A stretch of 64,000 nt of DNA from an uncultured Acidobacteriota bacterium (lineage in GTDB: Bacteria; Acidobacteriota; Thermoanaerobaculia; UBA5066; Gp7-AA6), in NCBI GenBank assembly GCA_963805495.1, contig CAWDUQ010000002.1, forward strand, positions 164,138 to 228,137, in the 5' to 3' direction. How positions within the stretch are numbered: position 1 is the first letter of the stretch; each line of letters starts with the position of its first letter. A program made the translations under genes and the position numbers. Shown here piece after piece: positions 9,664 through 35,254 of this stretch. The notes under the pieces are model-generated. The model did not search any database. It was given only the letters and a program-made list of their open reading frames with translations, and was not told where the DNA came from.

Positions 9664-10678
9664 CTACGCCGCCTTGTTTCGCGTCGCGACGATCTCGGCG
9701 AGGATGGCGACTGCGATTTCCTCGGGCGATCGGCCGCCGAGCGGCAGGCCGATGGGCCCGTGGAGCCGGGCGAGCGCGGCTGCGGGGAGGCCCGCCTCCG
9801 TCAGGCGCGCCCTCCGCTTCTCCTGGGTGCGCCGGGAGCCGAGTGCCCCGACATAGAACGCGCGGCCGGGAAGGGCGGCCAGCAGCGCCGGGTCGTCGAG
9901 CTTGGGATCGTGGGTGAGGACGGCGATCGCCGTCGATCCGTCCGGCGCGATCCGCGCGAGCGCCTTGTCCGGCCAGTCGTTGACGATCTCGTCGGCATGC
10001 GGGAACCGCTTCGCGTTGCCGAAGGCCTCGCGGGGATCGACCAGGATCGTCCGGAATCCGAGCGTCTTCGCGAGCGTCACGAGCGTGACCGCGATGTGCA
10101 CGCCCCCCACGATGACCAGGCGCGGCGCCGGCAGCAGCACGTCGACGAAGAGCTCCCGGGCCTCGGTCTTCACGCGCCGGCTCGCGCCCTCCGACTGCGC
10201 CGAGCGCGCCTCGGAGAGCGCCGCCTCGTCGATCTCGCCCCGGAGGCTGCCGTCCTCGAAAATAGCGAGCTTGCGCCCGACTTCTCCCTCGGGACCGCGG
10301 ATCACCGTCGCGACCGCGACCGGCTTCTCGCCGCGGATCGCCGATTCGGACCGGAGCGAAGATCGCCGGATCGAGCGGCTCGACGAAGACGTCGAGCGAG
10401 CCCCCGCACGCCAGCCCCACGCTCCACGCCGTGTCGTCCGAGACCCCGTAGTGGAGCAGCTGCGGCTTCCCGCTCGCGAGCGTCTTCTTTCCCGCCTCGA
10501 CGACCGCGTTCTCGACGCAACCGCCCGAGACCGATCCCGCGATCCGGCCGTCGGCCGTCAGAGCCATCTTCCCGCCCGCCGGCCGGGGAGCCGAGCCCCA
10601 GGTCTCGACCACCGTCGCGATCGCGACGGTTGCTCCCTCGGCCCGCCAGCGCTCGATGTCGGAAAGGACGTCGCGCAT
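9664..10678 (-). CDS. xdhC: XdhC/CoxI-family molybdoenzyme maturation factor, interrupted by a single-base frameshift near 10,330-10,350
   Basis: N-terminal XdhC_CoxI domain (ATVVETWGSAPRPAGGKMALTADGRIAGSVSGGCVENAVV...LACGGSLDVFVEPL) in one frame. The protein continues in the +1 frame (IRGEKPVAVATVIRGPEGEVGRKLAIFEDG...LVIVGGVHIAVTLVTLAKTLGF, a Rossmann fold). Confidence 0.6.
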
Positions 10679-10763
10679 GCCGCCGGGGATTATGTCTGCG
10701 GCGGCCGGTGGAGTTCCAGCGGGAAGGGGGCGGAGGCGAGTAATGGGTTCTGAGGCCGACTCC

Positions 10764-13670: not shown

Positions 13671-13936
13671 GAGCAGCGCGAATACGCCCGCGCCCCCTCT
13701 CCGTGTCTTCAGAAGGCACTCCCGTCGCTTCCTCGATAGCGGAGCCGGGCAGCGGCGCTGGACGAACCCGCTTCAAGTGAGAACGACTATTGGGCGAGAT
13801 CTTCCGCCCGGTATCGACGAGAAGTCAATCCGGAACCGGACTGGAAGAAACGCGCCGCGGCGTCAGCCCCATGAGACCTCTTGAAGCGGGAAGAGAAGTC
13901 CCACATTAGCGAGCCTGAGCGGGCGTCGACCCGCTC

Positions 13937-16900
13937 CTATGACGCCGACCGATGCTGGAGCTCGAGCCGAATCGGATGATCGGAGTCCGCGAGGGCGAGC
14001 AGCATTGTGAGCTCCGCTTCGACGATCTGTGCATCGTCTTCGCGGCCAACACGCCGATAGAGCGTGGCGAGCTTCAGGCGGTTCCTCAGCCAATAGGCCG
14101 CCGTGTTGCCCCGGATCACGGCATAGCGTCGGTCTGAGGATTCCTCGAGGATTCGGATGGCATGGGGCACGTCACCCCGCTGCGCGAGGGCATCCGCCAG
14201 GGATTCCGCGCCGAGATAAAAGCCGGGCCTCGCTCCGCGGTCGTCGAGCTTGAGTGCCTCTTGGAGCCTCATGGCGTCTTCGAGCTCCAGAACCGCTCCG
14301 GGAAGGTCTTTTCGGGCCAGCGCGAGCTCCCCGCGCACCGTATGGAGCTCCGCCGAGTTCTCCTGCGGCTGGAGGAATCGACGAGCCTCCGATGTCAAAC
14401 CCGCCCGCGCCTGGAGGATGCTGGTCGTTTCCCGCCATGTCAGCGGAAATCCCCCTTCCGATGGCCGAGCTCCCACAAACCGCAGATGGCGGTCGAGGGC
14501 ATGGGTATCACCCTTGTTGAAACTGATCTGGGCGAGCATGTCGTTGCGGGCGACCGGGTCGGCCATCTGCTGGGCCATCCGCGAAGCCTTCTGGAGTTGG
14601 CCCAGCGTCATGTAGCCGAGAGCTGTTGCGAGGCCAAACCGATCCCTGGCAGGGCCGTTGAGCGAGTCCACCTTGGCGGCGACGCGGTCGATGTCGCTCG
14701 ACGCGGCTGCAAGGTCTCCCTTCAGCCAGTCCTCGGTGAAGGGGAGGAGGTCCAACCAGCTGACGAAGTGTGGAAAGTCTTCCGTGACTCCTGGGGTAAC
14801 GAGTTCGGCCGCTCGATCCAGATATGATCCCGCCTGAGCTCGATCGGGCACAAAGACCACGAAGTCATACCCCGCATTCCAGTTCCAGAAAAAGTTCTTC
14901 GGGTGCAAATCCGCGAGCCTGGCCTCCATCGCCGCGCTCTTGCCCAGGGCTCGTGGATCGTGCGCCCAGTCGTAGAGATTGACCAGGTTCCATGCCGCCC
15001 AGAGGTGGTCGGGATAAAGGTCGAGAAGAGCCTCGTACGCGGCGATGGCCTTGTCCTTTTGGCCGAGCAGCGCGTAGTAGCTCCCCCGGATGAAATACCG
15101 CTCCCGCTCGCTCGTCTCGTCCGCCAGTCGAAGCGCCGTTTCCGCGTAGGGCTGGAACTCTTCGAGAGGCTTGCCCTGATTGCGAAGCGTCCATGCGAGA
15201 TGGATCCAGGCCGAGGCGAACGAGGGGTCTTCGGCGACGGCCTGTCGCAGAAGCTCCTCCGCGACTGGCTGGGAGTCGCGGAGATGCCCGGGCTGCATCA
15301 AGAGGTCTGCCCGGGAGTAGAGCTGTAGCGCTCTCAGGTTGGTCGTGGTGACTCTGGCCAGTCCGGTCGCGTCGGGGTCGCCGCGGTCGGCAGTGTCACC
15401 AAGGGCCACGCGGAGACGATCCGAAATGCGCCCGATGGCTGCGAGAGTGCCGTCCGCCCCAGCGCTCTCCTCCCGGAACCCGGCCAGAGTCGATCCCTGC
15501 TTCGGGTCCACGAGTTCCACGCTCAAGAGATAGTTGGATCCGAGCTTCTCGACCCGGCCGGTCAGCAAAGCCCGAATGCCGCCGTCCCGGAGGCAGACCT
15601 CGCGCGCCAGCCCGGCATCGATCGAAGAGTCCGGAGGCTTCCGCATCAGCCGCAGCGCGTCCGCGACGCGTTCCCTCGGGACGACGTTGACGTGGCGCGA
15701 GTTGGAGAGTTCCAGTCCGAGTGCGTAGTCGAGCGTTCCGTCGAAGAGACTGTCCCCGGTGCGGTTCTCGAAACCAGCGACCAGGATCCAGTCGCGGGGC
15801 TGGAAGGGAAGGGCCTGAAGTGTCCCCGCGGAGGGTGAAGAACCGGTCCGCGAGAGCCAGGCGACGGCGCCGACCACGAGAATCGCCAGCCCGAAGCCGG
15901 CGGCAATCAACGCGGCCCGGCGAGGCTTCTCTGTTCTGCGCTGGAGGTTCTCGAGCGCCGCGAGCATGCCTCGCGCAGACTCGAATCGCTTCGGCGAATC
16001 ATGCTCGATCGCCCGACCGATCACGGCGGCGAGGGCCTTTTTCGCCGCCGGAGCCCCTTCCGCAAGATCCAACCGCTCTCCGCGCGCGTGTGCCTCGGCG
16101 ACTTCCTTGACGGTCGCTCCGCGAACCGGATACGCGCCGGTGAGGAGATGGAAAAGCAGGACGCCCGTGCTGTAGATGTCGGTCCGGACCGTTGCCTGAG
16201 CCCCCTGGAAGATTTCCGGAGCGAGATACAAGGGCGTTCCTGCCGCGTCCAGGCTCGAGCCCGGAGTCTCTTCCAGCTCCCGTCCCGTCCCGAAGTCCAT
16301 CAGAACGAGACGGCCGTCTCCCGTCTGCATGAGGTTCTGCGCCTTGATGTCCCGATGGAGCAGGCCCGCATCGTGAACCGCCGAGAGTGCCCGGCAGACT
16401 TCGATGCCGATTCGCGTCACTTCGCGGTCGTCGAATTTCCCTCGTTCTCCGAGAACCTGTTCCAGGTTCCGACCGTGAATGAACTCCATCCAGAGGCCAA
16501 CCCGGCCTTCGATCTCGTCGGCGTCATAAACGGTGACGACGTTCGGATGGCGAACCCGCGCAAGCAGGCGCGCTTCCCTGAGTACCGTGGCGCCCTCCGG
16601 TTGCTCCTTGCCCCCGTGCAGCAGCTTGACCGCCACTTCGCGGTCGAGTTTCGGATCCCGGGCCCGGTAGACTTCGCCAAAGGACCCTCTTCCGATGCGT
16701 TCGAGGATCTCCAGCCTGCCCCAGTGTTCCAGCTTTTCCTCAGGAATCGTGCACGAGTCCGATAGAAGGGGATCGCGGGCAAGACTTCGGTGAAGCTCTG
16801 CGATCCCCGCGAGGACTCTCAGCTGCTGTAGAGCCTCGCGGTCCCTCTCGTCTGCAGAGGATTCCGCAAGGGCCCAGTCGACGGATTGACCATCGAGGAC

Positions 16901-16999
16901 GGCTCCCGCGAACTCGTCCAGCGGCCGATCCTCATCGTCCACGGGCCATCTCCTCGGCCAGACGAACCAGTGCGCGCTTCGTCGCCTTGTGCGCGGCAC
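13937..16999 (-). CDS. Transmembrane Ser/Thr protein kinase with a large TPR-rich extracytoplasmic sensor domain
   Basis: Hanks kinase motifs: GRGSFGEVYRA (P-loop), VAVK, HRDIKAQNLM, DFGTG, GTPLYLAPE. A single TM helix (ALIAAGFGLAILVVGAVAWL). About 600 aa of TPR-like repeats. The N-terminus overlaps the sigma gene's end; an alternative GTG start near 16942 would reduce the overlap to about 11 nt. Confidence 0.8.
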   Translation of the reverse strand: MPRTRRRSAHWFVWPRRWPVDDEDRPLDEFAGAVLDGQSVDWALAESSADERDREALQQLRVLAGIAELHRSLARDPLLSDSCTIPEEKLEHWGRLEILERIGRGSFGEVYRARDPKLDREVAVKLLHGGKEQPEGATVLREARLLARVRHPNVVTVYDADEIEGRVGLWMEFIHGRNLEQVLGERGKFDDREVTRIGIEVCRALSAVHDAGLLHRDIKAQNLMQTGDGRLVLMDFGTGRELEETPGSSLDAAGTPLYLAPEIFQGAQATVRTDIYSTGVLLFHLLTGAYPVRGATVKEVAEAHARGERLDLAEGAPAAKKALAAVIGRAIEHDSPKRFESARGMLAALENLQRRTEKPRRAALIAAGFGLAILVVGAVAWLSRTGSSPSAGTLQALPFQPRDWILVAGFENRTGDSLFDGTLDYALGLELSNSRHVNVVPRERVADALRLMRKPPDSSIDAGLAREVCLRDGGIRALLTGRVEKLGSNYLLSVELVDPKQGSTLAGFREESAGADGTLAAIGRISDRLRVALGDTADRGDPDATGLARVTTTNLRALQLYSRADLLMQPGHLRDSQPVAEELLRQAVAEDPSFASAWIHLAWTLRNQGKPLEEFQPYAETALRLADETSERERYFIRGSYYALLGQKDKAIAAYEALLDLYPDHLWAAWNLVNLYDWAHDPRALGKSAAMEARLADLHPKNFFWNWNAGYDFVVFVPDRAQAGSYLDRAAELVTPGVTEDFPHFVSWLDLLPFTEDWLKGDLAAASSDIDRVAAKVDSLNGPARDRFGLATALGYMTLGQLQKASRMAQQMADPVARNDMLAQISFNKGDTHALDRHLRFVGARPSEGGFPLTWRETTSILQARAGLTSEARRFLQPQENSAELHTVRGELALARKDLPGAVLELEDAMRLQEALKLDDRGARPGFYLGAESLADALAQRGDVPHAIRILEESSDRRYAVIRGNTAAYWLRNRLKLATLYRRVGREDDAQIVEAELTMLLALADSDHPIRLELQHRSAS

Positions 17000-17519
17000 C
17001 CGAGGTCGGCTTCCCGAGAAGGCGGGCGAGCTCCTCGTAGGAATACCCGAGCTCGACGCGGAGGATGATCGACTCGCGTTCTACTGGCCGCAGCCGCCCG
17101 AGAGCGTCTTCGTACCGTTCGATTTCTTCCATGCCGACAGCCTTCTCGAGAGGCGACCGCGCCGGGTCGACCTCGGTCCCTTCAAGCTCTCCGTGCGCCG
17201 GCCGCCTTGCCACCCGGCGGATCTCGTCGCGTATCCGGTTCATCACCGCCTGACGGAGGTAGGCCTGCAGGGCACCCTCCCGCTCGGGTGTGAAGACGTC
17301 CATCCTGTTAAACGTCTGAAGCAGGGTTTCCTGGACAAGATCCTGAGTGTCGGCCAGATCGCGCGCCCATTTGGGCAGCCGGCCCCTTGCCCAGCGCTGC
17401 AGCCGGGGCAGGTGGCGCGCGAAGAGCAGTTCGAGCGCCGGCTTGTCTCCCTCGCGAAACCGCTGGATGAGGCGGAACGTGGATTCGGCCTCGCCGCCGG
17501 GAGCGGGTTCGGGGGACAC
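16932..17519 (-). CDS. ECF (extracytoplasmic function) RNA polymerase sigma-70 factor
   Basis: Region 2 (LVQETLLQTFNRMDVF...YLRQAVMNRIRDEIRR) and region 4 (ESIILRVELGYSYEELARLLGKPTSGAAHKATKRALVRL). GTG start. No anti-sigma factor gene adjacent; a Ser/Thr kinase takes its place. Confidence 0.8.
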   Translation of the reverse strand: MSPEPAPGGEAESTFRLIQRFREGDKPALELLFARHLPRLQRWARGRLPKWARDLADTQDLVQETLLQTFNRMDVFTPEREGALQAYLRQAVMNRIRDEIRRVARRPAHGELEGTEVDPARSPLEKAVGMEEIERYEDALGRLRPVERESIILRVELGYSYEELARLLGKPTSGAAHKATKRALVRLAEEMARGR

Positions 17520-17990
17520 GGTTAGCGCCTAGTCTATTCCGCAGGCCACCCACCCACGGGTTTCCGCGGATTTTGAGCGATTTCGCGTCGAGAAAGCCTG
17601 CCGCGGTCGTTACTTGAGAAAAGGGCATGGTTGTGTACGCGACGCCGTCCAAGTCAGAGACCTGTTGCGAAACGCGGCTGGTCGAGAATCTGACACCTTC
17701 GTCGCTCGCCTGGCGCACGTCGCTCGCGTTTTTGCCGACAAGCGCTGCAGCGACTGGCTGCGGGAACTCGCGGCGAGAAACCTCCAGATCGTGACGATGC
17801 CGTCAGGCGGGGCGGGTATGGGGAGAGCCGGACGGCTTCTTGCCCTGCTCCGACAAAACATGCAAAAGGACCGAGGTGCCGAACCCTACCTACCCAGTCT
17901 AGCGAGGGTGCCCAGCCTCTGGATCGCCAGATCGCCTGCGTCACCAGAATCGCCAAGCCTACCGATGCGCCGACTGCCCGAGGAGGACAC

Positions 17991-20900
17991 ATGAGGGCTT
18001 CCCTTCGTTCCGGCCTCCATCTCGCGATTCTTCTCGGCATCGCGACCCACGTCGGTCTGCGAGGTCAGCTCGCCGCTTCGGACATCTGGGTCGGCAACGG
18101 GCCCGAGGGCGGGATCGTCAACGCGCTGGTCGTCGACCCATCTGACTCGAGCACGCTCTACGCCGGAACGACCTGGGGTGGAGTCTTCAAGAGTGTCGAC
18201 AGCGGCGCGAGCTGGAGTCCATCAAACCTCGGTCTCACGGGTAGGTCGGTCATCGCGCTCGCGATCGATCCCAGCAATCCGGCCACGATCTTCGCGGGGA
18301 CGATGCCGCAGGGGGAAGGCCAGGTCGGGCTGTTCAAGAGCACCGACGCTGGCGGCTCGTGGGCGCCATCCGCCGCCGGGATGATCTATTTCTTTGGATA
18401 CTACGCTGCGGTGGAGAACATCGAGGTCGACCCTCTATCGTCCTCCATCGTCTACGCGGGAACCCAGGCCGGCGCCTACAAGAGCATCGACGGAGGGGCT
18501 ACCTGGGAGAGTATCGGTGACTTCAACACGGGCTGTTTTGTGGCGATTGATCCTTCGACGCCCACAACCCTCTACGTCGGTGCAGGAGGCGCGGTCTACC
18601 GGAGCACGGACTCCGGGGCTAACTGGTTGCCGACCGGCGAGTTCAGTGGGGCGACGGTTCTCGGGATCATCGTCGATCCTACCGATAGCCAAGTGGTCTA
18701 CACGGTTGACAGCAACGGCGTCTCAAAGAGCATGGACAGCGGATCCTCATGGCAGAGCCTCCCGACAGGTCTCACGTATCCAAGCCTCTGGGAGCTCGCC
18801 ATGGATCCGCTCGACCACAACGTTCTCTACGTCGGAGCGCGATCAGGGTATCTCGACGAGTACGGTGTTCTAAAGACCACGGATGGGGGCGCGAGCTGGA
18901 ACCCGGTCAATTTCGGCATCGAGGATCAATTCAGTGTGGGGGCCATCGCAATCAGCCCTTCGACGCGCGGCATCGTCTACGCGGGCGGCTGGTCGTCGAA
19001 CTACAACTCGAACTCGCGCTCGTCTCCAGGAGGCGTCTACAAGACCACGAACGGCGCGGCTGTCTGGGCTCCTGCAAACAGTGGCCTGGCAAATTCCTTC
19101 GTCCACAGCGTCACGATCGATCCCGTCAATCCCGATATCCTGTATGCGGGGCTTTCGAGCTACGTCTCTCCATCCACAACCAACTTTGGCGTCTCGCGAA
19201 GCCTCGACGGTGGCGCCTCCTGGGGGCTTGCGAGTGAAGGATTGCTCGACCCCTATTCCGCCAAGACATCGCCTGTCTACGACGTCGTCGTCGATCCGAC
19301 CAACTCGAGCAGGGTCTACGCTGCTGGAGTCGGCGGCGTGTTTCGGTCGCTTGACGGCGGCGACTCCTGGGACCTGTTCGGCACTGGAATTAGCCCGACT
19401 CAGAACGGTGTCGAAATCGCGATCGACCCGGCCACGCCTTCCACGCTCTATCTCGCCACGTCCAACGGCTACGGGTTGTACAGGAGCACGGGTGCCGGCG
19501 GCGTCTGGTCGCCGATAGGCTCGGCCTACACATTTGCTCTCGATCCAGCCTCGCCCAACGTCCTCTACGGCGCAGAGATCGGTGGAATCGTCCGGAGCTC
19601 CGATGGAGGCGACACCTGGAGCACCCCGGTACCAGTCTGCTACAACGTCTACGCCCTCGCTGTTGCTGCCAATTCCTCCGCCGTCTACGCCGGTTGCTAC
19701 CTGGACGGAGTCTGGAAGTCTACTGACGACGGCGCGAACTGGTCCCACACGGATGAGGGCCTGGGCAATTGGTCGGTAGTTTCCCTCTTGGCGGACCCGG
19801 TCGATCCAAACACGATCTACGCCGGCGCAAATCAGAATCAGTTCGACACCGGCGCCGTCTACCGCTCGACCGATGCCGGGGTTCATTGGACGACCGTCGG
19901 CCAGGGGTTCCCGCCTCTGTTTGCCTACGGGCTGGCCCTTTCGCCGACAGGCAAGCTCTACGCAGCCACGGAGGGAGCGGGCGTCCTTGTCGTCGATGTC
20001 TGCGCCCCCGTCGGGCCTCCGACAGCCGGCAACGACGGACCTATTTTCTGTGAGGGGCAGACCATCAACCTGACCGCCTCGACGATAACCGGAGCAACCT
20101 ATGGGTGGACGGGACCCGGCGGCTTCACATCTAGTCTCCAGAACCCGACCATCTCCAACGCAACCCTCGCCGCCTCAGGGACGTATTCTGTCGTCGCGAC
20201 TGTGGACAACTGTGACACGTCGCCGGCGGACACAACGGTCGCCCTCAACGAGGCTCCGATCGCGACCGCCACGGGGTCGGCGACGATCACGGTCGGCCAG
20301 TCGACGCCTCTCTCGGGGTCGGGAGGTATTTCGTGCGTGTGGTCGCCGCCGACCGGCCTCGACGACGCCAATTCGTGCTCGCCGAACGCGAGCCCTTCGG
20401 TGTCCACTGTCTACTCGCTCGTCGTGACCGGTGCGAACGGCTGTGGCTCGACCAACGGAGCGGACGCCACAGTCACTGTAACCGGGGTAGGCATCCCACC
20501 TTCTGAGCGGGCTGCCCTGATTGCGCTGTACAACAGCACGAATGGTCCCGGCTGGACAAACAACACGAACTGGCTCGGGGCGCCGGGGACCGAATGCACC
20601 TGGTCTGGGGTGACTTGCGGTGCCAGTGGCACTACAGTCACCCAACTCATACTCTCGAGCAGGAATCTCACCGGCACGCTGCCTCCGGAGCTGGGCCAGC
20701 TCACCAACTTGCAGTTCCTTCGCTTCGGTCTTAATCACTTGAGTGGGGGGCTTCCACCAGAGCTCGGGAGCCTCGCCAACCTTGTTGTTCTCGATTTGCA
20801 ACTGAATCAGCAGCTCACCGGTCCGATGCCTCCCGAGCTGGCGTCCCTCACTAGCCTTCAGACCCTCATCGTCGACTACAACCAACTGTCTGGAAGTATC

Positions 20901-23900
20901 CCGGCGTGGCTGAGCAACCTGCCCTCCCTCAAGGTCCTTAGTCTCTTGGCGAACCGCTTCACTGGGTCGATACCTCCCGAGCTGGGGAACAGCCAGACGC
21001 TTCAGGAGCTGAGCCTCGGGTCGAACCAGCTCACCGGGCCAATCCCGGCTGAGTTGGGCAACCTTCAGAGCCTCACCTATCTCATCCTCGGACCGAATCA
21101 ACTGACAGGCGGAATTCCACCGGAGCTCGGCAACCTCGGCCAACTCAGAACGCTCAACCTGGCCTACAATCCGCTGGGCGGTGTCGTACCCGCCGCCCTT
21201 GGGAACCTCTCACAGCTCACATCGCTCTACCTCCAGGCCGACGGACTCACGGGAACGATTCCCGCCGAGCTCGGCAATCTGTCGACGCTGGCTAATCTCT
21301 ACCTGAATGGCAACCTGCTGAGCGGGCCGATTCCGCCAGAACTGGGGAACCTTGCCGCCGCCCGCTTCGTTGACCTCGAAGGCAATCAGCTCTCGGGAGC
21401 GATACCAATCCAACTCGGAGGCGCTTCTCTTCTGCTCGAGTTGTACCTCCAGGGAAATCGCCTGGAGGGCACGATCCCAGCCGAGATCGGCGACCTGACG
21501 GCTCTTCACATACTGAAACTCAACTCGAACAAGCTCGCCGGGCCGGTTCCCGGCAGCCTGTCCAACCTCACACAGCTACAGTCAGGCGGCCTGGATCTCC
21601 GGTGGAACGCTCTCGACACATCGGACTCGGCGCTTCTGGCGTTTCTAAATTCCAGGCAGATCGGCGGTGACTGGGAGGGCACCCAAACCGTGGCGCCTAC
21701 AAGCCCGAGCCTCGAAAGCGCGACTCCAAATGGCGTAAGCGTCGGCTGGACACCGATTCTCTACGCCGGAGACCCGGGCTTCTATCAAGTCATCTATGGA
21801 ACGACGACCGGCGGCCCTTACACGCCCTTTGCGACGACGACGACCGACAAATCAGCGTCCGGGCTTGCCGTGAACGGGCTCACACCCGGCACGGCCTACT
21901 ACTTCGTCGTGCAGACGACGACGCTGCCCCACTCGAATAACCAGAACACGGTAGCCAGCAACCCGAGTGTCGAGATCTCCGGGTCGACACTGAGCGGCAC
22001 CCCTACCCCCACAACGACGCCAACGGCAACCAGCACAGCGACATCCACCCCCACACCTACCGCTACCGGAACACCAACCTCAACCAGCACGCCCACAAAC
22101 ACTCCGACGCCCACTCAAACGCCGACGGCCACTCCGACACCGACGCTCACGCCTACCCAGACCCCGACGCAGACGAGCACGCCCACCCCGGTTCCGACCC
22201 CTACGACCACCAGTACCCCTCCGAGCACGCCAACGAGCACTGCGACTCAAACGCCGACCCCCGCTCCGACGGTAACGCCGCCTCCAACCCTGACCCCGAC
22301 GAAAACGTCAACGAACGTCGCTACGATCACGTCAACGGCGACCAGCACACCACCGCCTGCACCCACAAACACGCCGACGCCAACCCAGACGCCGGCACCG
22401 CTTCCGTGCGGCCCGACGCCCGACGAGTTTCCAATCCCAACGGCTGTCAGTGGGCCTTTCTTGATTGCTGCCGGATCCGATGGCGCCATTTGGTTCAGTG
22501 AGAATGGCGCCGACAAAATCGGCCGAATCACTACAGAGGGTGTCATTGCTGAATTCGCGCTTCCAATAGGTAGTGTACCTACCGGCATAACCGCTGGGCC
22601 GGATGGCAACCTCTGGTTCACGGAAACTGGCGCCAACAAGATTGGTCAGATCACTACCGGAGGCGTCATCACGGAATTCGCTGTCCCGACCGTCTCTTTC
22701 CCTTTCGACATCACCGCGGGACCGGATGGCGCTCTCTGGTTCACCGAAAGGAATCCAGCGCAGATCGGCCGGATATCGACATCTGGCGCTATCACCGAGT
22801 TTGCCCTCTCCGATCCCAGCAGCTTTCCATCCGGCATCACTGCGGGACCTGACGACGCCCTCTGGTTCACAGAATCCGCTGGTATTGGCAAGATCGGCCG
22901 AATCACTACGGCCGGCGATATTACTGAATTCGCGATCCCCACGGCCAACAGCTTTCCCTTTGACATCGTCGCGGGACCCGACGGGGCCCTGTGGTTCACG
23001 AGCAACGAGAAGATAGGCCGAATCACTGTCGGTGGCGTGGTCACGGAATTCGGGCTGCCCTCTCCCGGCAGTTACGGCATTGCAGTCGGGGTCGATGGCG
23101 CCCTCTGGTTCACGAAGCCAAACACGAATAGCATCGGGCGGATCACCATTGCGGGTGTCATCACGTTTTTCGCCCTCCCGCCCCCGGTCGGCAGCTTTCC
23201 GCTAGGCATTGTCGCGGGACCCGACGGCGCCTTTTGGTTTACCGAGTCTCAAGGCAACAAGATTGGCCGGATCTGCACGGCGGTGACGCCGAGTCCGACC
23301 AATACACCGACGCCGACGGTCATGCCGTCTGACACACCGACGAGTACTCCGAGCTTTACGCCTACCGTTACGCCAACCAACACGCCGACACAGACTGTCA
23401 CGGCCACACCGAGTCCGTCGCCAACCCCCACGCCAACGCCAACGGCGGTGCCGACGAACACGCCAACGAACGTCGCTACGATCACGCCAACGGCGACCAG
23501 CACACCACCGCCTGCACCCACAAACACGCCGACGCCAACCCAGACGCCGGCACCGCTTCCGTGCGGCCCGACGCCCGACGACTTTCCGGTCCCAACACCC
23601 TACAGCCAGGCTTTCGGTATCGCCGCCACGCCCGATGGTCCTCTCTGGTTCACGGAACTGAGCGGCAACAAGATCGGTCAAATCACCACGGCCGGGGTCA
23701 TCACCGAGTTCCCTATCCCTACGGCCGACAGTCAGCCTACTGGCATAGCGATGGGTTCGGACGGCGCTTTCTGGTTCACCGATCGAACGTCAACCAGGTC
23801 GGCCGAATCACTACGGCTGGCACAATTACCGAGTTTCCAATTCCCACGGCGAACAGTCGGCCTATAGGCATTACGCCGGGGCCGGACGGCGCCCTCTGGT

Positions 23901-24700
23901 TCACAGAGACCAACGGCAACCAGATCGGCCGGATCACCACGGCCGGGGCCATCACGGAGTTCCCAATCCCCACGGTCAGCAGTCGGCCTGTCGGGATCGC
24001 TGCGGGGGTTGACGATGCCCTCTGGTTCACCGAGACCAACGGCAACCAGATCGGTCGAATAGCAACGGACGGCGCTATCACAGAGTTCACAATCCCTACG
24101 GCGGGCGGCCCCCCCTATGCCATCGCGCCAGGGCCCGACGGCGCGCTGTGGTTTACCAAGCCGAACGCCGATCAGATTGGCCGAATAACGACGGCCGGCG
24201 TCATTACTGAGTTTTCCGTTCCCACCGACGGTCACCCCATCGGCATCACCGCCGGCGCGGACGGCGCTCTCTGGTTCGCCGAGAACGTCGTGAACCGAGT
24301 CGGCCGGATAACAACGACCGGCGCCATCACTGAGTATGACCTTACACCTTCGGGTCCGCCCGACCACATTGCCGCTGGATCGGATGGAGCCCTTTGGTTC
24401 ACGCGCGACATCGGCGACGCCATCGGGCGCATCTGCACGACTGCGGCACCGAACCCGACGAACACACCGACACCGACGATCACGTCGTCCAACACACCGA
24501 CGAAGAGTCCTAGCAACACGCCTACCGTTACGCCAACCAACACGCCGACACAAGCTGTCACGGCCACACCGAGTCCGTCGCCAACCCCAACGCCAACGGC
24601 GGTGCTGACCAATACCCCGAAACCGACGAAGACGCCGAACCCGACAAAGACGCCGAAGCCTACGAAGACGCCGAAGCCTAGGAAGACGCCGAAGCCATGA
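17991..24700 (+). CDS. Giant secreted mosaic surface protein, about 2,230 aa if one frameshift near 23,786 is bridged. Domains: BNR/Asp-box beta-propeller, Ig-like, about 13 plant-type LRRs, FN3, Thr/Pro linkers, two Vgb (streptogramin-lyase)-like beta-propellers, and a Lys/Pro/Thr-rich tail.
   Basis: Strong RBS GAGGAGG 7 nt upstream of the ATG, then a signal peptide. About 13 S-x-D-x-G-x-x-W repeats ([18 protein letters not shown] and so on). 24-residue LRRs (LxxLxxLxLxxNxLSGxIPxELGNL). An FN3-like domain. TPTPT linkers. WFTE...IGRIT..G.ITEF repeats characteristic of the virginiamycin B lyase fold, present in two copies. The ORF-track pieces are 17991..23867 and 23561..24700. Confidence 0.7.
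22309..22426. repeat. 118-bp direct repeat R1, copy 1 (linker preceding the first Vgb-like propeller)
   Basis: About 99% identical to 23464..23581, with one mismatch. Encodes ...[37 protein letters not shown]. Confidence 0.85.
23358..23455. repeat. About 95-bp direct repeat R2, copy 1 (linker following propeller 1). Copy 2 lies at 24518..24608.
   Basis: The string acgcctaccgttacgccaaccaacacgccgacaca[g/a][a/g]ctgtcacggccacaccgagtccgtcgccaacccc... occurs twice. Copy 1 carries a 6-nt insertion. Confidence 0.8.
23464..23581. repeat. 118-bp direct repeat R1, copy 2 (linker preceding the second Vgb-like propeller)
   Basis: See copy 1; seen directly in the sequence. Confidence 0.85.
24518..24608. 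repeat. About 91-bp direct repeat R2, copy 2 (linker following propeller 2)
   Basis: Near-identical to 23358..23455. Confidence 0.8.
24623..24694. repeat. Four 18-bp in-frame tandem repeats (cc[g/t]a[c/g][g/a]aagacgccgaa[c/g]) encoding (P)TKTPKP units at the C-terminus of the giant protein
   Basis: Direct reading of 24623-24694. Encodes [26 protein letters not shown]. Confidence 0.8.
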
Positions 24701-24830
24701 GAGGACCTACAAACCTAGCGCTTCGCCGCCGGCGCGAACGGGAGCCACAACGGAGGCGATGCGCGTTTGCTGGACCGGTTCGTACCCGCATGTCGACTTC
24801 GGGAGGACCTCCTTTGTCACCGAGAGATGA

Positions 24831-27800
24831 ATGGACGGCTCCCTGGCGGATTCCCCCGCAATCACAGCGCTTGCGAAGGGAGGCTCGCATGAATCCGGAT
24901 TCCGGACTTCAGATCAAGGGACAACTCCGGCTATCACGAGAGTTCTTGTCTGCTTTTTTCTCGGCGTCCTCTTGCTTCGACTTGTTGCCGGCGCTCAGAT
25001 CATCAGCGACTCTCGAGTCGCCGGTCACGCTGGCGCATTTAGAGAGCGCATTGGCGACATACGCATGCCTTTTGTCTCGAATGCCGGGCAGAGCGACCCT
25101 GCGGTTGCGTTCTACGCTCGGACCTTCGCCGGCACCGTCTTTGTCACTCGAAGGGGCGAGATCGTCTATTCGCTTCCACGGGCGGTCAGAGACGCCGGAG
25201 CGACTCAAAAACCCCGAGGACCCGCTCTCGAGGCGGATGCCGCGGGCTGGAGCCTGAGCGAGACGCCTGTCGCCGGGAAGGGTCGAGTTACCCCAGGCCA
25301 AAGGGCACCCGCCCTTGTCAGCTACTTCACTGGCTCTGATCCTGCTCGGTGGCGAACGGGCGTTCGCACATACGAGACCGTAGTGCTTGGCGAGGTCTGG
25401 CCGGGCGTGAGCCTGTCCCTGCGCGCCAGCGGTAACAATGTGGAAAAGGTCTTCACGATACGGCCCGGAGCGGACTTCTCTCGCATCCGGATGCGCGTCG
25501 CCGGCACACGGTCGCTCCGAATCGACGACGACGGTGCACTCATTGCGGCAACGGGGCTGGGAGAGGTGACGTTTACGCGCCCTCTTGGCTACCAGGAGCG
25601 GGACGGCGCGCGCCTGCCCGTCAAGGTGGGATACCGCGCGCAAGGTCGGCAATACGGCTTTTCAATCGGCGAACATGACCCTGCGCTGCCAGTAGTCATC
25701 GACCCCCTGTTGCAGGCGACATATTTGGGTGGCAGTGGCATGGAAGGTCAGTACTCCGTCGCTCTCGCTATCCACCCGACGACGGCGAAGTGTTCCTCGC
25801 TGGGTACACGTTCTCCGCCGACTTTCCTGGAACTGCCGGAGGGGCACAGCCGGCGAGCGGAGGCAGTATCGACTGTTTTGCGCGCGCCTGGACGCTGCTC
25901 TCACCACGCTGAGCCAGGCGACCTATTTCGGCGGCAGCTCCTTCGACCTCGCCTTTAGTCTCGCCGTCGAGCCAACGTCCGGCGACGTACTCATGGCCGG
26001 ATAACATCCTCCACCAACCTTCCGGGCACTACGGGTGGGGCCCAGCCGGTGAACGCGGGCAATCAGGACGCTTTCATCGCGCGCTTTGACGCTACTCTTG
26101 ACACGCTGTACCAGGCGGTCCTATCTCGGAGGCAGCTCCGACGAGTTGGCCTATTTCCTTGCTCTCGCGATTCACCCGACCTCAGGCGAAGTTCTCGTCT
26201 CCGGGTCAACGGACTCGTTCAATTTTCCCGGTACAGTCGGTGGGGCGCAACCCTCGAAAGGCACCTTCGGTGATGCTTTTGTTGCACGCTTGAACGCCGG
26301 CCTCACTACGCTCAACCAAGCGACCTATCTCGGCGGCAATGGTGACGATCTTGGCGGCGCCATGGCCATCGACCCTGGGTCTGACGATGTGCTCGTAGCC
26401 GGGAGCACGAACTCCACCGATTTTCCCGGGATAGCCGGAGGAGCCCAGGCTTCGAACGCGGTGACGGGGACGCTTTCATCGCGCGCTTGAACTTCAGTCT
26501 CACAGCGCTGAACCAAGCGACGTATCTCGGTGGTGGGGACACGAAAGCTGGCCGCGCTTGCCATCCATTCGAGCTCCGGGGACGTGTACATCTCCGGGGC
26601 CACGCTCTCCACTGACTTCCCGGGCACCGCGGGCGGCGCGCAGCCGGCCCATGGCGGCGGTTTCTACGACGCCTTTGTGGCGCGCTTGAATGGAAGCCTA
26701 ACGATACTGAACCAGGCGACCTATCTTGGTGGTGGTCGCCGAGACTCTTTTCTGCGCTCGCTATTCATCCGGCCTGGGGAGAAGTGTTCATTGCGGGCCA
26801 GACGTTTTCAGCCAATTTTCCCGGCACTGCCGGGGGAGCCCAGCCGGCATTCGGCGGTGGTAGTGGTGACGTCTTCGTCGGGCGGCTAAGCGTCAGTCTC
26901 ACGACGCTGAACCAGGCGACTTTTCTCGGAGGCAGCGGGGGCGACGCGTTCAAGGTGTCGCCATCGATCCGACTTCCGGCGACGTGTTTGTTGCCGGTCA
27001 GACGACTTCAACCGACTTTCCCGGCACCGTCGGTGGTGCCCAGCCAGCGAACGCTGGCGGTAGCGGCGACACGTTCATTGCGCGCCTGACGCCTGACCTG
27101 GCCGGCATTCCCACGATCGCACCCTCTTCAGGGCCCGCGTCGGGTGGGACCGTGGTCACGATTACTGGTAGCGGGTTTCAGGTCGGCGCCACCGTCACGA
27201 TCGGGAATGCACCGGCAACGGGAGTTTCCGTCGTCAACTCTCACCAGATCACCGCTACCACTCCGGCACTTGCTGCTGGCTCCCTGAACGACGTTGTCGT
27301 CACCAATCCGGGATCCTTGCCGATGTCGCCGCAGCTCGTGCTCGTCGGGGGGTTTTTCGCGGACTTTCCGACGTACCTCTCCCAGACCCGTTCCATACCT
27401 TCATCGAGAAGGTCTTCCGCAAGGGCATCACCGCCGGCTGTGGCGGGGGCAACTATTGCCGCGACAACTCCGTCACGCGGGCGCAGATGGCGGTGTTCCT
27501 GCTGAAGGCGGAGCATGGCGCCATTTTCGACCCACCTGATTGCGCCGGCATTTTTCCGCGATGTTCCCTGTACTCCTGGTATGGGCTTTTCGGACTGGAT
27601 CGAGCAGCTCGCGGCCGAGGGAATCACGGGTGGCTGCGGAGGTGGTAACTACTGCCCCAACGACCCCGTTACGCGGCAGCAGATGGCGGTCTTTCTCCTG
27701 AAGACCAAACATGGCCCGGGCTACGCGCCGCCGTCCTGCGCGGAATCTTCGGCGACGTTCCCTGCCCGAGCACGTTTGCGATTGGATCGAGCAGCCCGCT

Positions 27801-27908
27801 GCCGAAAACATCACCGGAGGTTGCGGCGGCGGGAACTACTGTCCTTCGTACCCGAACACGCGGGGGCAGATGGCGGTGTTTCTCGTGAAGACGTTCAATC
27901 TGCAATGA
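24831..27908 (+). pseudogene. SBBP (seven-bladed beta-propeller) repeat protein with an N-terminal DUF7948-like domain and C-terminal SLH-like domains. It is broken into at least 8 frame segments: either a decayed pseudogene or a region dense in sequencing errors.
   Basis: The first segment has a signal/TM stretch, then ...RMPFVSNAGQSDPAVAFYARTFAGTVFVTRRGEIVYSLP (DUF7948-like). The unit LNQATYLGGsg.D.a.aiAid..g.v.vAG.T.S.dFPGTaGGAQP..gG..DaFvArL recurs in ORF fragments 25729-26004, 26086-26490, 26530-26889, 26784-27089 and 26984-27505. The 3' end encodes two GCGGGNYCP-type SLH-like modules (27391-27908), again split across three frames. Confidence 0.55.
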
Positions 27909-27942
27909 CCGACTGTGTGGCCGAGAGAGGAAGTCGCGAGGG

Positions 27943-30900
27943 ATGTTGACAGTGAGGTGTGATGTGCTACGCGCTCGGCGAATGGAGCCAACGCTGTTGG
28001 TGGCTTTCGCCATCGCAGCGCTGACCGTACGGCCCCTCGCGGCGCAGACTTATCAGGTGCTTCACAATTTCGAACCGGTGCCGCCAGCCCTTCCGCTCGC
28101 AGGGCTGATAGCAGATTCGGTAGGTAATCTGTACGGTACGACGGTAAGCGGTGGGGTATGGGGCCACGGGACAGTATTCAAAGTCGACACCTCAGGCGCG
28201 CTGACGATCCTTCACAACTTTGGCTACTCCGAAGGGACCGGTCCGTGGGCGTCGTTGATTTGGGACGGCTTTGGAAACCTGTATGGAACGACTTGTTGCG
28301 GCGGCGCCGGCGGTCGTGGAACCGTGTTCAAGTTGGACAGCACGGGGGACCTCACGGCGTTGCATAGCTTCAGTGGCGGCGACGGCGCCGCTCCAACGGC
28401 CGCCTTGATTTCAGATGCCTCGGGAACCTTTATGGGACGACGTTGACTGGTGGCGTGGGTGATCACGGAACAGCGTTCAAGGTTGATCCTTCGGGCACGC
28501 TGACTACACTGCATGCATTTGGCGGCCCTGACGGTGACCAGCCGTGGGGAGCGCTGATCCGGGACGGTGGGGGCAACCTCTACGGGACGACTCTCTACGG
28601 TGGCGCTGGAGATCTCGGGACGGTCTTCAAGCTGGACATAGCTGGAACGCTGACGACGCTGCACGCGTTCGACGGCTCAGACGGGATTGTCCCGTGGGCT
28701 TCTCTGATTCAGGATGGCGCGGGCAACTTCTACGGCACGACGGCATACGGGGGCGTGAACGGGCGAGGAACCATTTTCAGGCTCGACCCCTCTGGGACCC
28801 TAGTCACCCTCCACAGTTTTTCGGATTCAGAGGGGGCAGTCCCGAGCGCCGGACTCCTCCGAGACGGGGCCGGGACTCTTTACGGGACAACCACCTTGGG
28901 TGGCGCAAGCGATCTCGGGACGGTGTTTGCGCTCGACACGTCTGGATTGCTAACGACGCTCTACGGCTTCAGTGGTCTCGACGGTAGCGCGCCTGAAAGC
29001 GCTCTAATCCAGGACAGTTTCGGCAACCTCTATGGGACGACGTACACGGGTGGCTCAGGCGGAGGTGGGACCCTCTTCAAGCTCGGCGCCAGCGGAGGAC
29101 TGACCACGCTCGTCACGTTCAACGACTCGGACGGTGCGTACCCGGCCGCTGCCTTGATTCAGGACGCCTCGGGCAACCTTTTCGGCGGAACGTCGTACGG
29201 CGGCGTGAACGGTGACGGAACGATCTTCAAGCTCGAGTCGTCTGGGGCGTTGACGGTGCTGCACAGGTTCAGCCGTTTTGTCGACGGTGCCAGCCCCTAC
29301 GCGGCACTTTGCCAAGACGGCCTGGGAAACCTTTACGGAACGACCGTCCTCGGTGGCGTGGGAGACAACGGAACGATCTTTAAGCTCGATGGCTCGCAAA
29401 CACTGACGAGGCTGCATAGCTTCAGCGGCTCGGGTGGCTCCGTCCCGATCGGCGCTCTGATTCAGGACGCCTCGGGAACCCTCTACGGCACAACTGCGAG
29501 CGGCGGGGCGAGCGGGATGGGCACGGTCTTCAAGTTCGACACGTCAGGAGTGCTGACTACGATACACAGTTTCACCGGTTCTGACGGTGCGGCTCCAGAT
29601 GCCGGGCTGATTCGGGACGGCACGGGAAACCTCTACGGAACGACCTCCGGCGGTGCAAGCGGCCATGGAACAGTTTTCAAGCTGGAACCCGCCGGATCGC
29701 TGACGACGCTACACAGTTTCAACGGTGCAGACGGGTCTTCTCCGTCGGCCGCCCTGATTCAAGACGGCTCGGGCAATCTATACGGGACGACTGCCAGCGG
29801 CGGCGCAAGCGGCTTCGGCTCTGGAACGGTTTTCCGGCTCGACACCGCAGGGACACTGACGACGCTGCACACCTTTGACGGCTCCGACGGTGCCAACCCC
29901 CGAGCCGCACTGGTCGGGGACGGCTCCGGCAACCTTTACGGGACGACTGTGGGCGGGGGGGGGGTGGGCTCTGGAACGATCTTCAAGCTCGACTCGGCTG
30001 GGATTCTGACGACACTGCACAGTTTCGACAAGTCCGATGGCGCTTTCCCGCTGGCTGGCTTGATGCAAGACACCTCTGGCAATCTCTTCGGCACGACCTC
30101 GGGAGGAGGCACGAACGGAACCGGCGTCGTCTTCTTTTTCGGAACGGCCACCGCGCCTTTTGCAGTTTCGGCTATCGACCCAGCGTCGGCCCCAGCGTTC
30201 CCCGAGACGTTCGTGAGGGTCGCGGGAGCGGGATTTCTGAGCGGGGCAACTCTCAGTATCGGAAGCGTCGTGGCCACGAACACCGCCGTCGTCGACTCAA
30301 CGAAGATTGAAGCGTCGACACCCGCGCTTTCGCCCGGAACGCTGAATGACGTTGCGGTTTCAAACCCGTGGTCATCGCCGACGGTTCTGGCCAAGGGCTT
30401 TTTCGCGGACTTCCTCGACGTGACGCAGGCAGACATCTTCCACAACGACGTTGAAAAGGTGTTCCGAAACGGCATCACCGCGGGATGTGGGGGTGGCAAC
30501 TACTGCCGGAATAGTCCGGTCACGCGCGCCCAGATGGCCGTGTTTCTGTTGAAGGCCGACCACGGATCCGCCTATCTACCGCCAGCGTGCTCGGGTATCT
30601 TCCCGGATGTCGAGTGCACGCCGTCACCCGCTTTTGCGGTCAACTGGATCGAGCGGCTCTACAAGGAAGCGATCACCGGCGGGTGTGGCGGGGGCAACTA
30701 CTGTCCTGGCAACTCCGTCACGCGCGCTCAGATGGCGGTTTTCCTCCTCAAGTCGGAGCATGGGGCGACCTACGTGCCGCCGCCGTGTACCGGCATCTTC
30801 CCCGACGTTGAGTGCACGCCGACACCCGCCTTCGCCGTCAACTGGATCGAGCAGCTGCACAACGAAGGCATCACCGGAGGCTGCGGTGGCGGCAACTACT

Positions 30901-30968
30901 GCCCGGGCAACTCCGTCACCCGTGGCCAGATGGCGGTGTTTCTGGTCAAGACGTTCGGTTTGCCGTGA
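27943..30968 (+). CDS. Secreted GloVer-type (Gloeobacter/Verrucomicrobium tandem repeat, 'choice-of-anchor') beta-propeller repeat protein with three C-terminal SLH-like domains. One frameshift near 28,425.
   Basis: Signal peptide MEPTLLVAFAIAALTVRPLAAQ. About 17 tandem repeats of about 46 aa (LTTLHSFsGsDGa.P.aaLiqDasGNLYGTT..GGa.G.GTVFKLd.sG). An IPT/TIG-like domain. Three copies of FPDVEC/FHNDV...W/FIE.L...GITGGCGGGNYCPGNSVTRAQMAVFLLK. ORF-track pieces are 27943..28446 and 28443..30968. Confidence 0.7.
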
Positions 30969-30974
30969 CGGGCG

Positions 30975-31015
30975 AAAGGACGGCCAAGGACCACGCGGCT
31001 CAGTCCTTGCCGTCC
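30975..31015 (+). terminator. Imperfect GC-rich hairpin just after the stop of the GloVer gene (aaggacggccaagga...tccttgccgtcc); no U-tract
   Basis: Inverted repeat ggacggc(c)aagga / tccttgccgtcc, 7 nt beyond the TGA at 30966-30968. Confidence 0.3.
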
Positions 31016-31145
31016 GTGTCTCCGCTCCTCAGCGGTGAATCGTCAGGTTGTCCACAGAATGACGCTGGCGCCACCGACCCGACAAGGAAACAGAGCCGTC
31101 GATCTGGAGAGCCCCGCGCTGACGCTGTTTGAAAGGAGAATCGAA

Positions 31146-31952
31146 ATGGAACCATTCCGAACCCCTACAAATGCCCCTACCAGACAGCGACGACTAGGCA
31201 TTGCGACCTTCGCACTAACACTCCTGTTTTGTCAGCCGCGTCGCGGCCTGGCAGACCCCCCCCGGTAAGCCCCCGAAGGCCACGGACATCCCCGTGACGA
31301 CGACGATCAGCGACGAGGATTCGGACGGAAACACCTACACCGTTGCGAGCGAGGGCGGGGCACCTACTTCAACGGGGTGGACAACGTCATGGCGATCCTG
31401 ACCTGCAACGGTTACAACGGAATCAAGAATGGCGACTGGCAGTTCAACAAGCCCGTCAGTGGCAAGAAGGGACAGCGGCAAAACGGACGCGGGATCACGA
31501 TGAGTCTCAACGTTTCCGACGCGGTCCAAGTCGGTGACCCGCACTATACGGCGCCGGCCGCCCCTCCGTACTGGGGCAGCGCGACCCTGTACGGCTATTC
31601 GGAGGTCAAGTGCACGTTGGTAGGCAAGAGCATGCTGACGATGGCGTCCGACACGGCAATGACTTGTCCTCTGCTGATCAACTTCTTCCCGGGAAATCCG
31701 GAGGTCGGCTACGGCCTGAATCCCGCGCACTCTGTCAATAACTTTCCCGAGGTCACGGACGCTCAGATCACTTGCGAATCAGCGGACTCCGGTGGCTGCA
31801 ATTCGTGGTCCATCGAGCCTTATGCCAACCCCGACCCCTGGGATGGTCGAGATCCGTTCGAAGCCGTCGGACGTTTGGTCCCGCACTCGAACACGAGCAT
31901 CAACAAGGGCGACTTCTACATGCGGTTCCACATTCACGTGACTCGGCCTTAG
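31146..31952 (+). CDS. Small secreted hypothetical protein, about 270 aa if intact. Split by two homopolymer frameshifts: a C8 tract at 31256-31263 and a G4 tract near 31358.
   Basis: Good SD (AAAGGAGAAtcgaaATG). N-terminus MEPFRTPTNAPTRQRRLGIATFALTLLFCQP is a signal peptide with an RR motif. The reading frame continues across the C8 run into ...KPPKATDIPVTTTISDEDSDGNTYTVASEGG and then into the ORF 31377..31952. Local GC is visibly lower than the flanks. Confidence 0.45.
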
Positions 31953-32023
31953 AGCCAGCGTAGTTTCCAGCAAGGGTCGGGCCCGGAGCGACGACACGCC
32001 GCGGCCCGACCCCTTTTTTGCGC

Positions 32024-32890: not shown

Positions 32891-32892
32891 TC

Positions 32893-35244: not shown

Positions 35245-35254
35245 GGCCGCCCTC

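Follow-up and report, generated by a model that had tools for sequence, protein, structure and literature searches.

Several families of secreted or surface-exposed proteins bear on the locus described here. Asp-box propellers in a tandem 7+7 arrangement constitute 'type 3' of Quistgaard and Thirup, the Asp-box itself being structural and unlikely to take part in ligand binding, and the Asp-box propellers of Vps10 proteins are not carbohydrate-active enzymes (PMC2716378). In the xyloglucanases of glycoside hydrolase family 74 (GH74), such as CjGH74 (5FKR), PoGH74 (6MGJ) and Xgh74A (2CN2), two consecutive seven-bladed Asp-box propellers form a cleft. The streptogramin lyase Vgb (PDB 2Z2N, 2Z2O, 2Z2P and 2QC5; PF24684) is a single seven-bladed propeller whose conserved polar residues in blades 6 and 7 bind both substrate and Mg2+ (PMC8916777). 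Plant-type leucine-rich repeats (LRRs) make up the ectodomains of plant receptors such as PEPR1, GSO1, FLS2 and BRI1 and are found in bacteria in the Xanthomonas effectors XopAC, XopAE and XopL. Finally, when an extracytoplasmic function (ECF) sigma factor is encoded beside a Ser/Thr kinase, phosphorylation in sigma region 2.2 is its known or predicted mode of activation; members of ECF43 have no acidic DAED motif there (PMC8999054). Relatives of these systems come together in a 64,000-nt stretch of contig CAWDUQ010000002.1 from an Acidobacteriota bacterium, probably of the class Thermoanaerobaculia (hereafter the window, to which all nucleotide positions refer). At 17991–24700 on the + strand, two frames joined across one missing base make up a giant gene, and the evidence supports its encoding one long, presumably exported mosaic protein of 2,236 aa (residue numbers refer to this joined product). 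We favour, at somewhat better than even chances, the reading that this is a Sec-exported, non-catalytic, multivalent extracellular binding or adhesin-like protein.

A preliminary description of this DNA had proposed a single mosaic reading frame with one frameshift, and both this organization and most of the domains named there were recovered: hidden Markov model scans support the BNR, LRR_8, fn3 and Vgb_lyase assignments. The putative Sec-type signal peptide (aa 1–29, 17991–18077), like the one named in the preliminary description, was read by eye from the translation and consists of MRASLRS, a 16-residue hydrophobic core and LAA/SD, with no lipobox Cys. It is followed on the same strand by tandem seven-bladed Asp-box (BNR) propellers (aa 30–675, 18078–20015), assigned by Pfam, homologue consensus, AlphaFold2 (AF2) modelling and Foldseek. 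Two Cys-containing Ig-like (immunoglobulin-like) domains of the Ig_7/PKD_6 kind (aa 676–834, 20016–20492), where one had been proposed, were delimited by Pfam and by comparison with the soil-metagenome protein P0001. The second is 57% identical to P0001 residues 747–848, residues 691–772 of P0001 score as Ig_7 and Ig-like_POM152, and the window protein itself gives a weak Pfam Ig_2 match. The plant-type LRR module (aa 835–1234, 20493–21692), defined by Pfam and repeat register, comprises an LRRNT_2 cap, 13 LRRs and a C-terminal cap and precedes a fibronectin type III (FN3) domain (aa 1235–1336, 21693–21998; Pfam fn3 4.1e-7, 30.5 bits vs a cut-off of 25). The remainder alternates between linkers, identified by composition, and propellers: Pro/Thr linker 1 (134 aa, 72% Thr+Pro, 21999–22400), Vgb-family seven-bladed propeller 1 (aa 1471–1765, 22401–23285; Pfam, PDB match, AF2 and Foldseek), Pro/Thr linker 2 (90 aa, 68% Thr+Pro, 23286–23555), Vgb-family seven-bladed propeller 2, which holds the frameshift (aa 1856–2152, 23556–24445; Pfam and alignment), and a C-terminal tail read from the translation, first Pro/Thr- and then Lys/Pro-rich, with the stop codon (24446–24700). 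The long TPTPT linkers, the FN3 domain and the two Vgb-like propellers had all been anticipated. Altogether there are three Pro/Thr-rich low-complexity segments with 61–72% Thr+Pro, the last of which runs into the Lys/Pro-rich tail. The linker and propeller unit is a diverged tandem duplication, with 74–83% DNA identity between the linkers and 59% protein identity between the propellers. No recognized sorting domain was found in the C-terminal tail.

The predicted start of the giant gene is unambiguous, because the interval from the upstream stop (17694) to ATG 17991 contains no further in-frame start codon and because a GAGGAGG Shine-Dalgarno sequence (at about 17979–17985) is placed 5 nt 5′ of this ATG. 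The ATG-initiated open reading frame (ORF) extends from 17991 to 23867 (+, 1,958 codons) and overlaps a +1-shifted open frame at 23561–24700 (+; stop 24698–24700). Restoring one base after 23782, between TTCTGGTTCACCGA and TCGAACGTC, joins the two. The site (23781–23783, +) is one base short in codon 1931 ('GA-' before TCG), in a WFT(D/E)S motif inside blade 2 of the second Vgb-family propeller, where the text reads FWFT(D/E)..., a normal blade of the family. A scan of GC content at third codon positions did not tell the coding frames apart. We consider the frameshift probably an assembly error, because conserved genes of the window carry single-base indels too. CoxM (32024–32900) has an extra base at 32475 and a missing base at 32630, leaving 155 nt out of frame, and in XdhC (9605–10678) the XdhC_CoxI and XdhC_C domains sit in different frames; these cases point to leftover assembly indels. 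A deletion in a G-run that splits the GloVer-like gene of the island was counted on the same side. In the relative L049, CoxM is intact (288 aa) and the indels of the window are absent. The source contig is 1.76 Mb long, consistent with long-read assembly, and contigs of this size are typical of long-read assemblies with residual indels.

The rival that retains most weight, although we regard it as unlikely, is that the gene is a real pseudogene in a decaying accessory island, its product stopping short behind blade 2 in the second propeller or not being made. The site at 23782 lies outside any long homopolymer, but the frame beyond it stays open for 305 codons with the blade consensus intact, and the disruption is the only one in 6.7 kb of giant gene. 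The surroundings could likewise be taken as signs of decay, since the neighbouring gene for a DUF7948-SBBP-TIG-SLH protein lies in at least six frames, the next gene is split too and the island is missing from a close relative; against this stand the similar single-base indels of CoxM and XdhC, which the relative lacks, and the length of the contig. Pseudogene annotation would also fit the lack of a recorded protein, either by exact-sequence lookup or among the relatives returned. A lookup of the 1,958-aa ORF and of the adjoining ECF sigma factor in the contig index found neither sequence, and a scan of GTDB representative genomes recovered no copy of the giant gene, only relatives of its LRR module with 31–50% identity and one Bacteroidota locus in which BNR and LRR proteins have genes of their own. 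Taken together, an assembly error appears clearly likelier than a real pseudogene as the origin of the frameshift. A programmed frameshift was rejected: position 23782 shows no slippery motif, and unrelated conserved genes have indels of the same kind. As a separate observation, GATC occurs 538 times in the window compared with about 190 expected from base composition, CGATCG occurs 98 times, and the frameshift of the giant gene falls inside a CGATCG.

Each of the C-terminal propellers consists of seven WF blades and matches Vgb_lyase (PF24684) with E-values of 2.1e-107 (propeller 1) and 4.5e-110 (propeller 2). Both share with Vgb a length of about 295 residues and the WFTE...IGRIT...ITEF signature, and propeller 1 matches PDB 2qc5 at 4e-73. 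An AF2 model of propeller 1 (predicted local distance difference test, pLDDT, 95.4) was compared by Foldseek with the Vgb structures of S. aureus and S. cohnii, which gave template-modelling (TM) scores of 0.91–0.93, root-mean-square deviations of 1.5–1.6 Å and identities of 39–41%; the matches to 2z2n/2z2o scored 0.92–0.93. Unlike the solved chains, which stand alone with 299–300 aa, the window propellers form a tandem pair within a presumably secreted giant protein, each is bracketed by a Cys pair, and the catalytic residues are replaced. The catalytic and Mg2+-site residues of Vgb, which we take to be His228, Glu268 and His270 together with Glu284 (Korczynska et al. 2007), were located by colinear seven-blade alignment. 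In the 2z2n chain these positions are occupied by H, E, H and E, and the title of PDB entry 2z2p reads 'catalytically inactive H270A'. At the positions of His228/Glu268/His270, propeller 1 carries Tyr/Phe/Leu and propeller 2 Ile/Pro/Asp. Since all three residues are replaced in both copies and propeller 1 contains no histidine at all, the idea raised in the preliminary description that these propellers may be catalytic C-O lyases fails as judged by alignment. Their scores against the NCBIfam models for Vgb(A) and Vgb(B) are 238–319 bits against a cut-off of 600 bits.

The absence of the known active site extends to the relatives of the propellers, none of whose 120 closest members contains the PH...EPH lyase motif. 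Soil resistome surveys that count such Vgb-like genes as resistance determinants would thus overcount. About 80 of the same 120 have signal-peptide-like N-termini according to a crude test, and an exhaustive search with the propeller returned 35,567 cluster representatives at E ≤ 1e-3. The window propellers are thus members of a very large clade of Vgb-fold propellers that are secreted and whose role is probably binding. Each of the two has exactly two Cys residues, in the first and last strands (LPC...GRIC), which in propeller 1 are C1473 and C1762. The first and last strands of a closed propeller lie side by side, and it is plausible that the Cys pair forms a disulfide that closes the propeller, as expected of an extracellular module. 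Among single-propeller members of the family, P0123, P0129 and P0183 were seen to have in common a Cys-containing C-terminal domain, about 110 residues long, that Pfam does not recognize (...GYFWFFDxxNVExxVKVLxGC...FAAGLTxVxxxLxVTD...AFxTCP).

The N-terminal propellers were examined in the same manner. The region matches Sortilin-Vps10/BNR in Pfam (4.6e-25), and the preliminary description had counted about 13 Asp-box repeats in it. Indeed, 13 Asp-box motifs were counted (10 of them strict SxDxGxxW), but an alignment of 35 relatives resolved 14 blades with the consensus LAIDPxxPxTLYAGTxxxGVFKSTDGGxxW, corresponding to two tandem seven-bladed propellers. The AF2 model of the region (pLDDT 90.2, predicted TM score 0.88) retrieved only GH74 chains among its top 25 Foldseek matches in the PDB, mostly with a TM score of about 0.7 and with 16–21% identity. 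According to the model, the Asp-box region is a tandem 7+7 propeller of GH74-like fold. In comparison with the GH74 xyloglucanases, the window domain is about 90 residues shorter at the same low identity. The first catalytic Asp of GH74 was located by a mutant pair, 5fkr having Asp and 5fkq Ala in the ARTDIGG sequence (RTD-IGG motif, blade 1); the window protein has Thr at this position (AGTTWGG), and none of the 35 homologues has Asp in this column.

These losses bear directly on the possibility that the protein is a secreted enzyme whose propellers cleave a polysaccharide or cyclic ester with non-canonical residues, the LRR, Ig-like and FN3 modules targeting the substrate. We hold this to be improbable. 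The fold matches to GH74 and Vgb speak for it, as do the Pro/Thr linkers, which are typical of secreted glycanases, yet the first GH74 Asp is neither present here nor conserved in the family and the Vgb triad is gone from both propellers. The protein also exceeds the cut-off of NCBIfam NF045728, 'F510_1955 family glycosylhydrolase' (192.9 bits vs 175). This cut-off is, however, passed only by summation over seven repeat stretches, so that the score probably reflects the repeats and not equivalence; NF045728 is an equivalog, a single-domain model of 246 positions, and the architecture of the 2,236-aa protein differs. Propeller 2 keeps a His and an Asp-His near the Vgb site, whereas the blades are otherwise highly regular and devoid of a symmetry-breaking polar cluster. 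A 'streptogramin lyase' or 'glycosyl hydrolase' annotation of such proteins should accordingly not be read as function.

Between the two propeller regions lies the LRR module, in which the preliminary description had recognized about 13 plant-type repeats of 24 residues. We found exactly 13 such repeats in register at aa 881–1192, forming a regular array that fits the plant-specific class LxxLxLxxNxL(s/t)GxIPxxLxx. Pfam matches to LRR_1 (3.7e-36) and LRR_8 (1.6e-23) were accompanied by an LRRNT_2 cap (PF08263; 1e-4, 23.0 bits vs a cut-off of 20.7) with two Cys residues. A PDB search with this region gave plant LRR receptor or receptor-like ectodomains in all of the first 40 rows (1e-140 to 7e-66), PEPR1 being the best solved match (1e-140), followed by GSO1, FLS2, MIK2, ERL1 and BRI1. 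The likeness to PEPR1, GSO1, FLS2 and BRI1 comprises the 24-residue LxxLxLxxNxLsGxIPxxLgxL repeats and the LRRNT_2 cap with its Cys pair; unlike these receptors, the window protein has no transmembrane or kinase part and has only 13 repeats, set inside a bacterial mosaic. It does not reach the cut-offs that NCBIfam sets for the Xop effectors. Among GTDB representatives, the capped module occurs with 31–50% identity in Bacteroidota, Chloroflexota, Gemmatimonadota, Desulfobacterota, Patescibacteria and other genomes, the relatives with 40–50% identity spanning several phyla. With bacterial relatives in at least six named lineages, the module is, on this distribution, a widespread bacterial one, and not a recent acquisition from plants.

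We thus picture the protein, after cleavage of the signal peptide, as a long chain of independent recognition modules. The GH74-shaped tandem Asp-box propeller would offer a cleft without the hydrolase dyad, the two Ig-like domains would act as spacers, and the capped plant-type LRR solenoid would present a concave surface able to bind proteins or peptides. Beyond the FN3 domain, the two Vgb-fold propellers would be carried on flexible Pro/Thr stalks of 90–134 residues, with top faces that are hydrophobic at the positions of the Mg2+/His/Glu site of Vgb. The basic Lys/Pro tail could hold the protein on anionic envelope polymers. Several observations weigh against this picture. The N-terminus looks like a Sec signal peptide, but this was judged by eye, and no outer-membrane secretion or anchoring signal was recognized in the giant protein. 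The His in blade 6 and the Asp-His in blade 7 of propeller 2 are only one position off the Vgb register, the local alignments that would place the second GH74 catalytic Asp are ambiguous in register among the repeated blades, and the propellers may have a different active site despite the loss of the known catalytic residues. In addition, the frameshift may be real, given that the downstream gene is broken in at least six places, which could mean a decaying island.

To place the architecture among known proteins, the N-terminal 1,336 aa were compared with their best 120 relatives and the propeller with 146 newly retrieved sequences of its best 150 representatives. The N-terminal tandem propeller is common to more than 7,000 proteins, whose C-terminal parts vary widely. 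Closest are P0001 and P0002 from soil metagenomes (2,224–2,225 aa; 60% identity, the best local alignment covering 62% of the 1,336-aa query), which share the tandem Asp-box propeller, the Ig-like and the LRR modules and a divergent ECF sigma gene upstream. They differ in module order and in having FG-GAP, Big_3_5 and PKD_6 in place of the FN3 domain and the Vgb propellers. None of the 120 N-terminal relatives contains a Vgb domain, and none of the 146 propeller-matching sequences contains BNR, Ig, LRR or FN3 modules. The suggestion that the combination was uncharacterized therefore needs to be narrowed: the exact combination appears unique in this sample, but its modules are common and giants with shuffled modules are known, so that the building principle is a familiar one. 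The best-scoring propeller representatives reach 3,328 aa, about two thirds exceed 1,000 aa, and they carry several such propellers each. Metagenomic giants such as P0244 (3,328 aa), P0246 and P0247 have 4–11 matched Vgb-family stretches in 1,000–3,300 aa and are 41–66% identical to propeller 1 of the window, differing in their partners, which are NHL, RHS/DUF6531 or DUF11; they are uncharacterized.

One of these giants, P0246, combines Vgb-family propellers with RHS repeats and DUF6531, which raised the notion of a teneurin/Rhs-type surface protein for competition or predation, whose propellers and LRRs recognize a target cell and deliver an effector. Weak matches to teneurin-like structures (sequence E-values of 4e-4 to 5e-4; fold TM 0.60) and the strain variability of the island would agree with it, but the scans revealed no RHS/YD repeats, toxin domain, immunity gene or genes of a secretion system, either within the protein or beside it, and the protein ends in a low-complexity tail; we therefore rate this notion as very improbable. 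That the region comprises several separate genes is scarcely credible, as the Pro/Thr linkers, which part modules found stand-alone elsewhere, are in frame within 1,930 continuous codons, prolonged by 305 after one missing base, and homologues of 2,224–3,328 aa make a protein of this scale normal.

Novelty is limited, since every module recurs in thousands of relatives beside other, shuffled partners and giants with several Vgb propellers are known: the giant protein is an unusual member of an ordinary kind of bacterial surface protein and no new system. If it is made, it would clearly illustrate how very large surface proteins are built in soil Acidobacteriota from a few reshuffled extracellular modules, among them a plant-type LRR array and enzyme-derived propellers stripped of their active sites. 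Current understanding is not overturned by any of these results. Two loci elsewhere showed related modules side by side. At 5439–17779 of a Cyclobacteriaceae metagenome-assembled genome (MAG; L019), genes for BNR-propeller proteins, a PorP/SprF gene and genes for two LRR proteins of plant type carrying CHU_C type IX domains adjoin, so that modules united in one protein in the window, BNR and LRR, belong there to neighbouring, separate cargo genes of the type IX secretion system. On a soil-metagenome contig with a distant BNR homologue (L047, 15049–18542), an ECF sigma/anti-sigma pair lies beside a gene for a Vgb_lyase-domain protein that exceeds 760 aa, such parts again being neighbours but separate genes.

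Upstream of the giant gene, an ECF sigma gene (16932–17519, −; Pfam) adjoins it divergently. It overlaps by 68 nt the gene of a receptor-type Ser/Thr kinase with tetratricopeptide repeats (TPRs; 13937–16999, −; Pfam), which is followed by the gene for a CarboxypepD_reg TonB-dependent receptor; no zf-HC2 (anti-sigma) domain was found in the sigma factor or the kinase. This arrangement resembles that of kinase-activated ECF sigma factors (EcfP/PknT, EcfK/PknS; ECF43 and related groups), in which the sigma gene overlaps that of a receptor-type Ser/Thr kinase with no anti-sigma factor between, the likeness lying in gene order and, suggestively, in the region 2.2 motif. Region 2.2 of the window sigma factor reads DTQDLVQETLL (residues about 56–66), that is, DTQD compared with the canonical DAED. 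The Thr of this motif sits where kinase-activated ECF sigma factors are phosphorylated, and two Asp residues are kept, in contrast to the kinase-activated groups. The DTQD motif is suggestive, but not diagnostic, of a kinase-activated sigma factor.

The preliminary description had taken the strong Shine-Dalgarno sequence and a 470-bp upstream region shared with the sigma/kinase pair as signs of regulation. The Shine-Dalgarno sequence, a divergent intergenic region of 471 bp (17520–17990, from the ECF sigma start to the giant-gene start) and divergent ECF sigma genes upstream in the three closest lineages (P0001, P0002 and P0004) agree with this. In P0001 and P0002 the sigma factor is paired with a zf-HC2 anti-sigma factor and a TPR-CHAT protein, with no kinase, and a small GerE regulator is encoded between the sigma gene and the giant gene; in P0004 the ECF sigma factor occurs with a Ser/Thr kinase. 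It is plausible that the ECF/kinase pair of the window controls the giant gene and may switch it on. Two findings count against this part of our proposal: an ECF sigma gene is absent beside more distant relatives, and the 470-bp region is not conserved in the 98%-identical relative L049. No Rfam match was found in the intergenic region or around the gene, and a scan for the sigma-70 consensus gave no promoter of this type at either end of the giant gene. A 126-aa ORF at 17614–17994 has no Pfam match. A relic of a GerE regulator in the intergenic region was rejected as a candidate, the only match being 'LLALLR-MQ' with tblastn E-values of 0.3–0.5.

L049, the comparison genome, has a CoxL 96% identical to that of the window; among named genomes, the latter is closest to those of MAGs from Thermoanaerobaculia and other Acidobacteriota. 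By blastn, the segment with the kinase and sigma genes (13622–17501) is 98.1% identical in L049 and the Cox region (31257–36226) is 91.5% identical. Between them, the 13.75 kb at 17502–31256, which hold the giant gene together with two more genes for surface proteins, correspond to an unrelated 4.5 kb in L049 (reverse complement 3882–8365). This island also stands out by its GC content of 62–64% compared with about 70% in the flanks. On the left, the breakpoint falls among the initial codons of the ECF sigma gene, and the 470-bp upstream region thus belongs to the island. Since the 98%-identical relative has the unrelated 4.5 kb in its place, the giant gene is, from this comparison, evidently strain-specific cargo of a variable locus. 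A search of the island ends for direct or inverted repeats of 9 nt or longer gave only a single 9-mer attributable to chance, and neither an integrase nor a tRNA was found at its borders. The 4.5-kb replacement contains small GloVer-like, PKD and Ig-like ORFs; the window and L049 versions of the island both encode secreted repeat proteins (GloVer-like, PKD, Ig-like).

A further conceivable reading, which we put forward as a long shot, is that the sigma/kinase pair marks a cassette locus at which strains of one Thermoanaerobaculia lineage swap giant secreted repeat proteins beside the sigma gene, the sigma factor driving whichever is present; the cassette would be the BNR-LRR-FN3-Vgb protein with the SBBP and GloVer/SLH proteins in the window and other, small GloVer/PKD/Ig-like ORFs in L049. 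A kinase-phosphorylated sigma factor would then provide a signal-controlled, strain-variable cell surface, and the divergent ECF sigma gene found again beside the three closest homologues hints that such coupling could be general for this protein family. The swap of the island beside a conserved sigma/kinase pair offers a testable lead on the regulation of surface variability, and this variable locus, together with the general lack of lyase residues in the environmental 'Vgb family', may prove more useful than the protein itself.

Downstream of the giant gene, neither end of which showed an intrinsic terminator when scanned, the island continues with the DUF7948-SBBP-TIG-SLH gene (24831–27949; DUF7948, SBBP repeats, IPT/TIG and SLH), fragmented into six or more pieces that lie in different frames. 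Breakage is far above that of the rest of the window here and corresponds to local repeat mis-assembly or to a decaying gene. The next gene (27943–30968) encodes GloVer-like tandem repeats, IPT/TIG and three SLH-like units and is split near 28425, where a one-base deletion was seen in a G-run (TCGGG-AAC, expected ASGNLYGTT). Outside the island, the region at 41.3–43.7 kb shows a small inversion relative to L049, and ARAGORN reports a tRNA-Ala(CGC) at 41292–41387 that, at 96 nt, is about 20 nt longer than usual.

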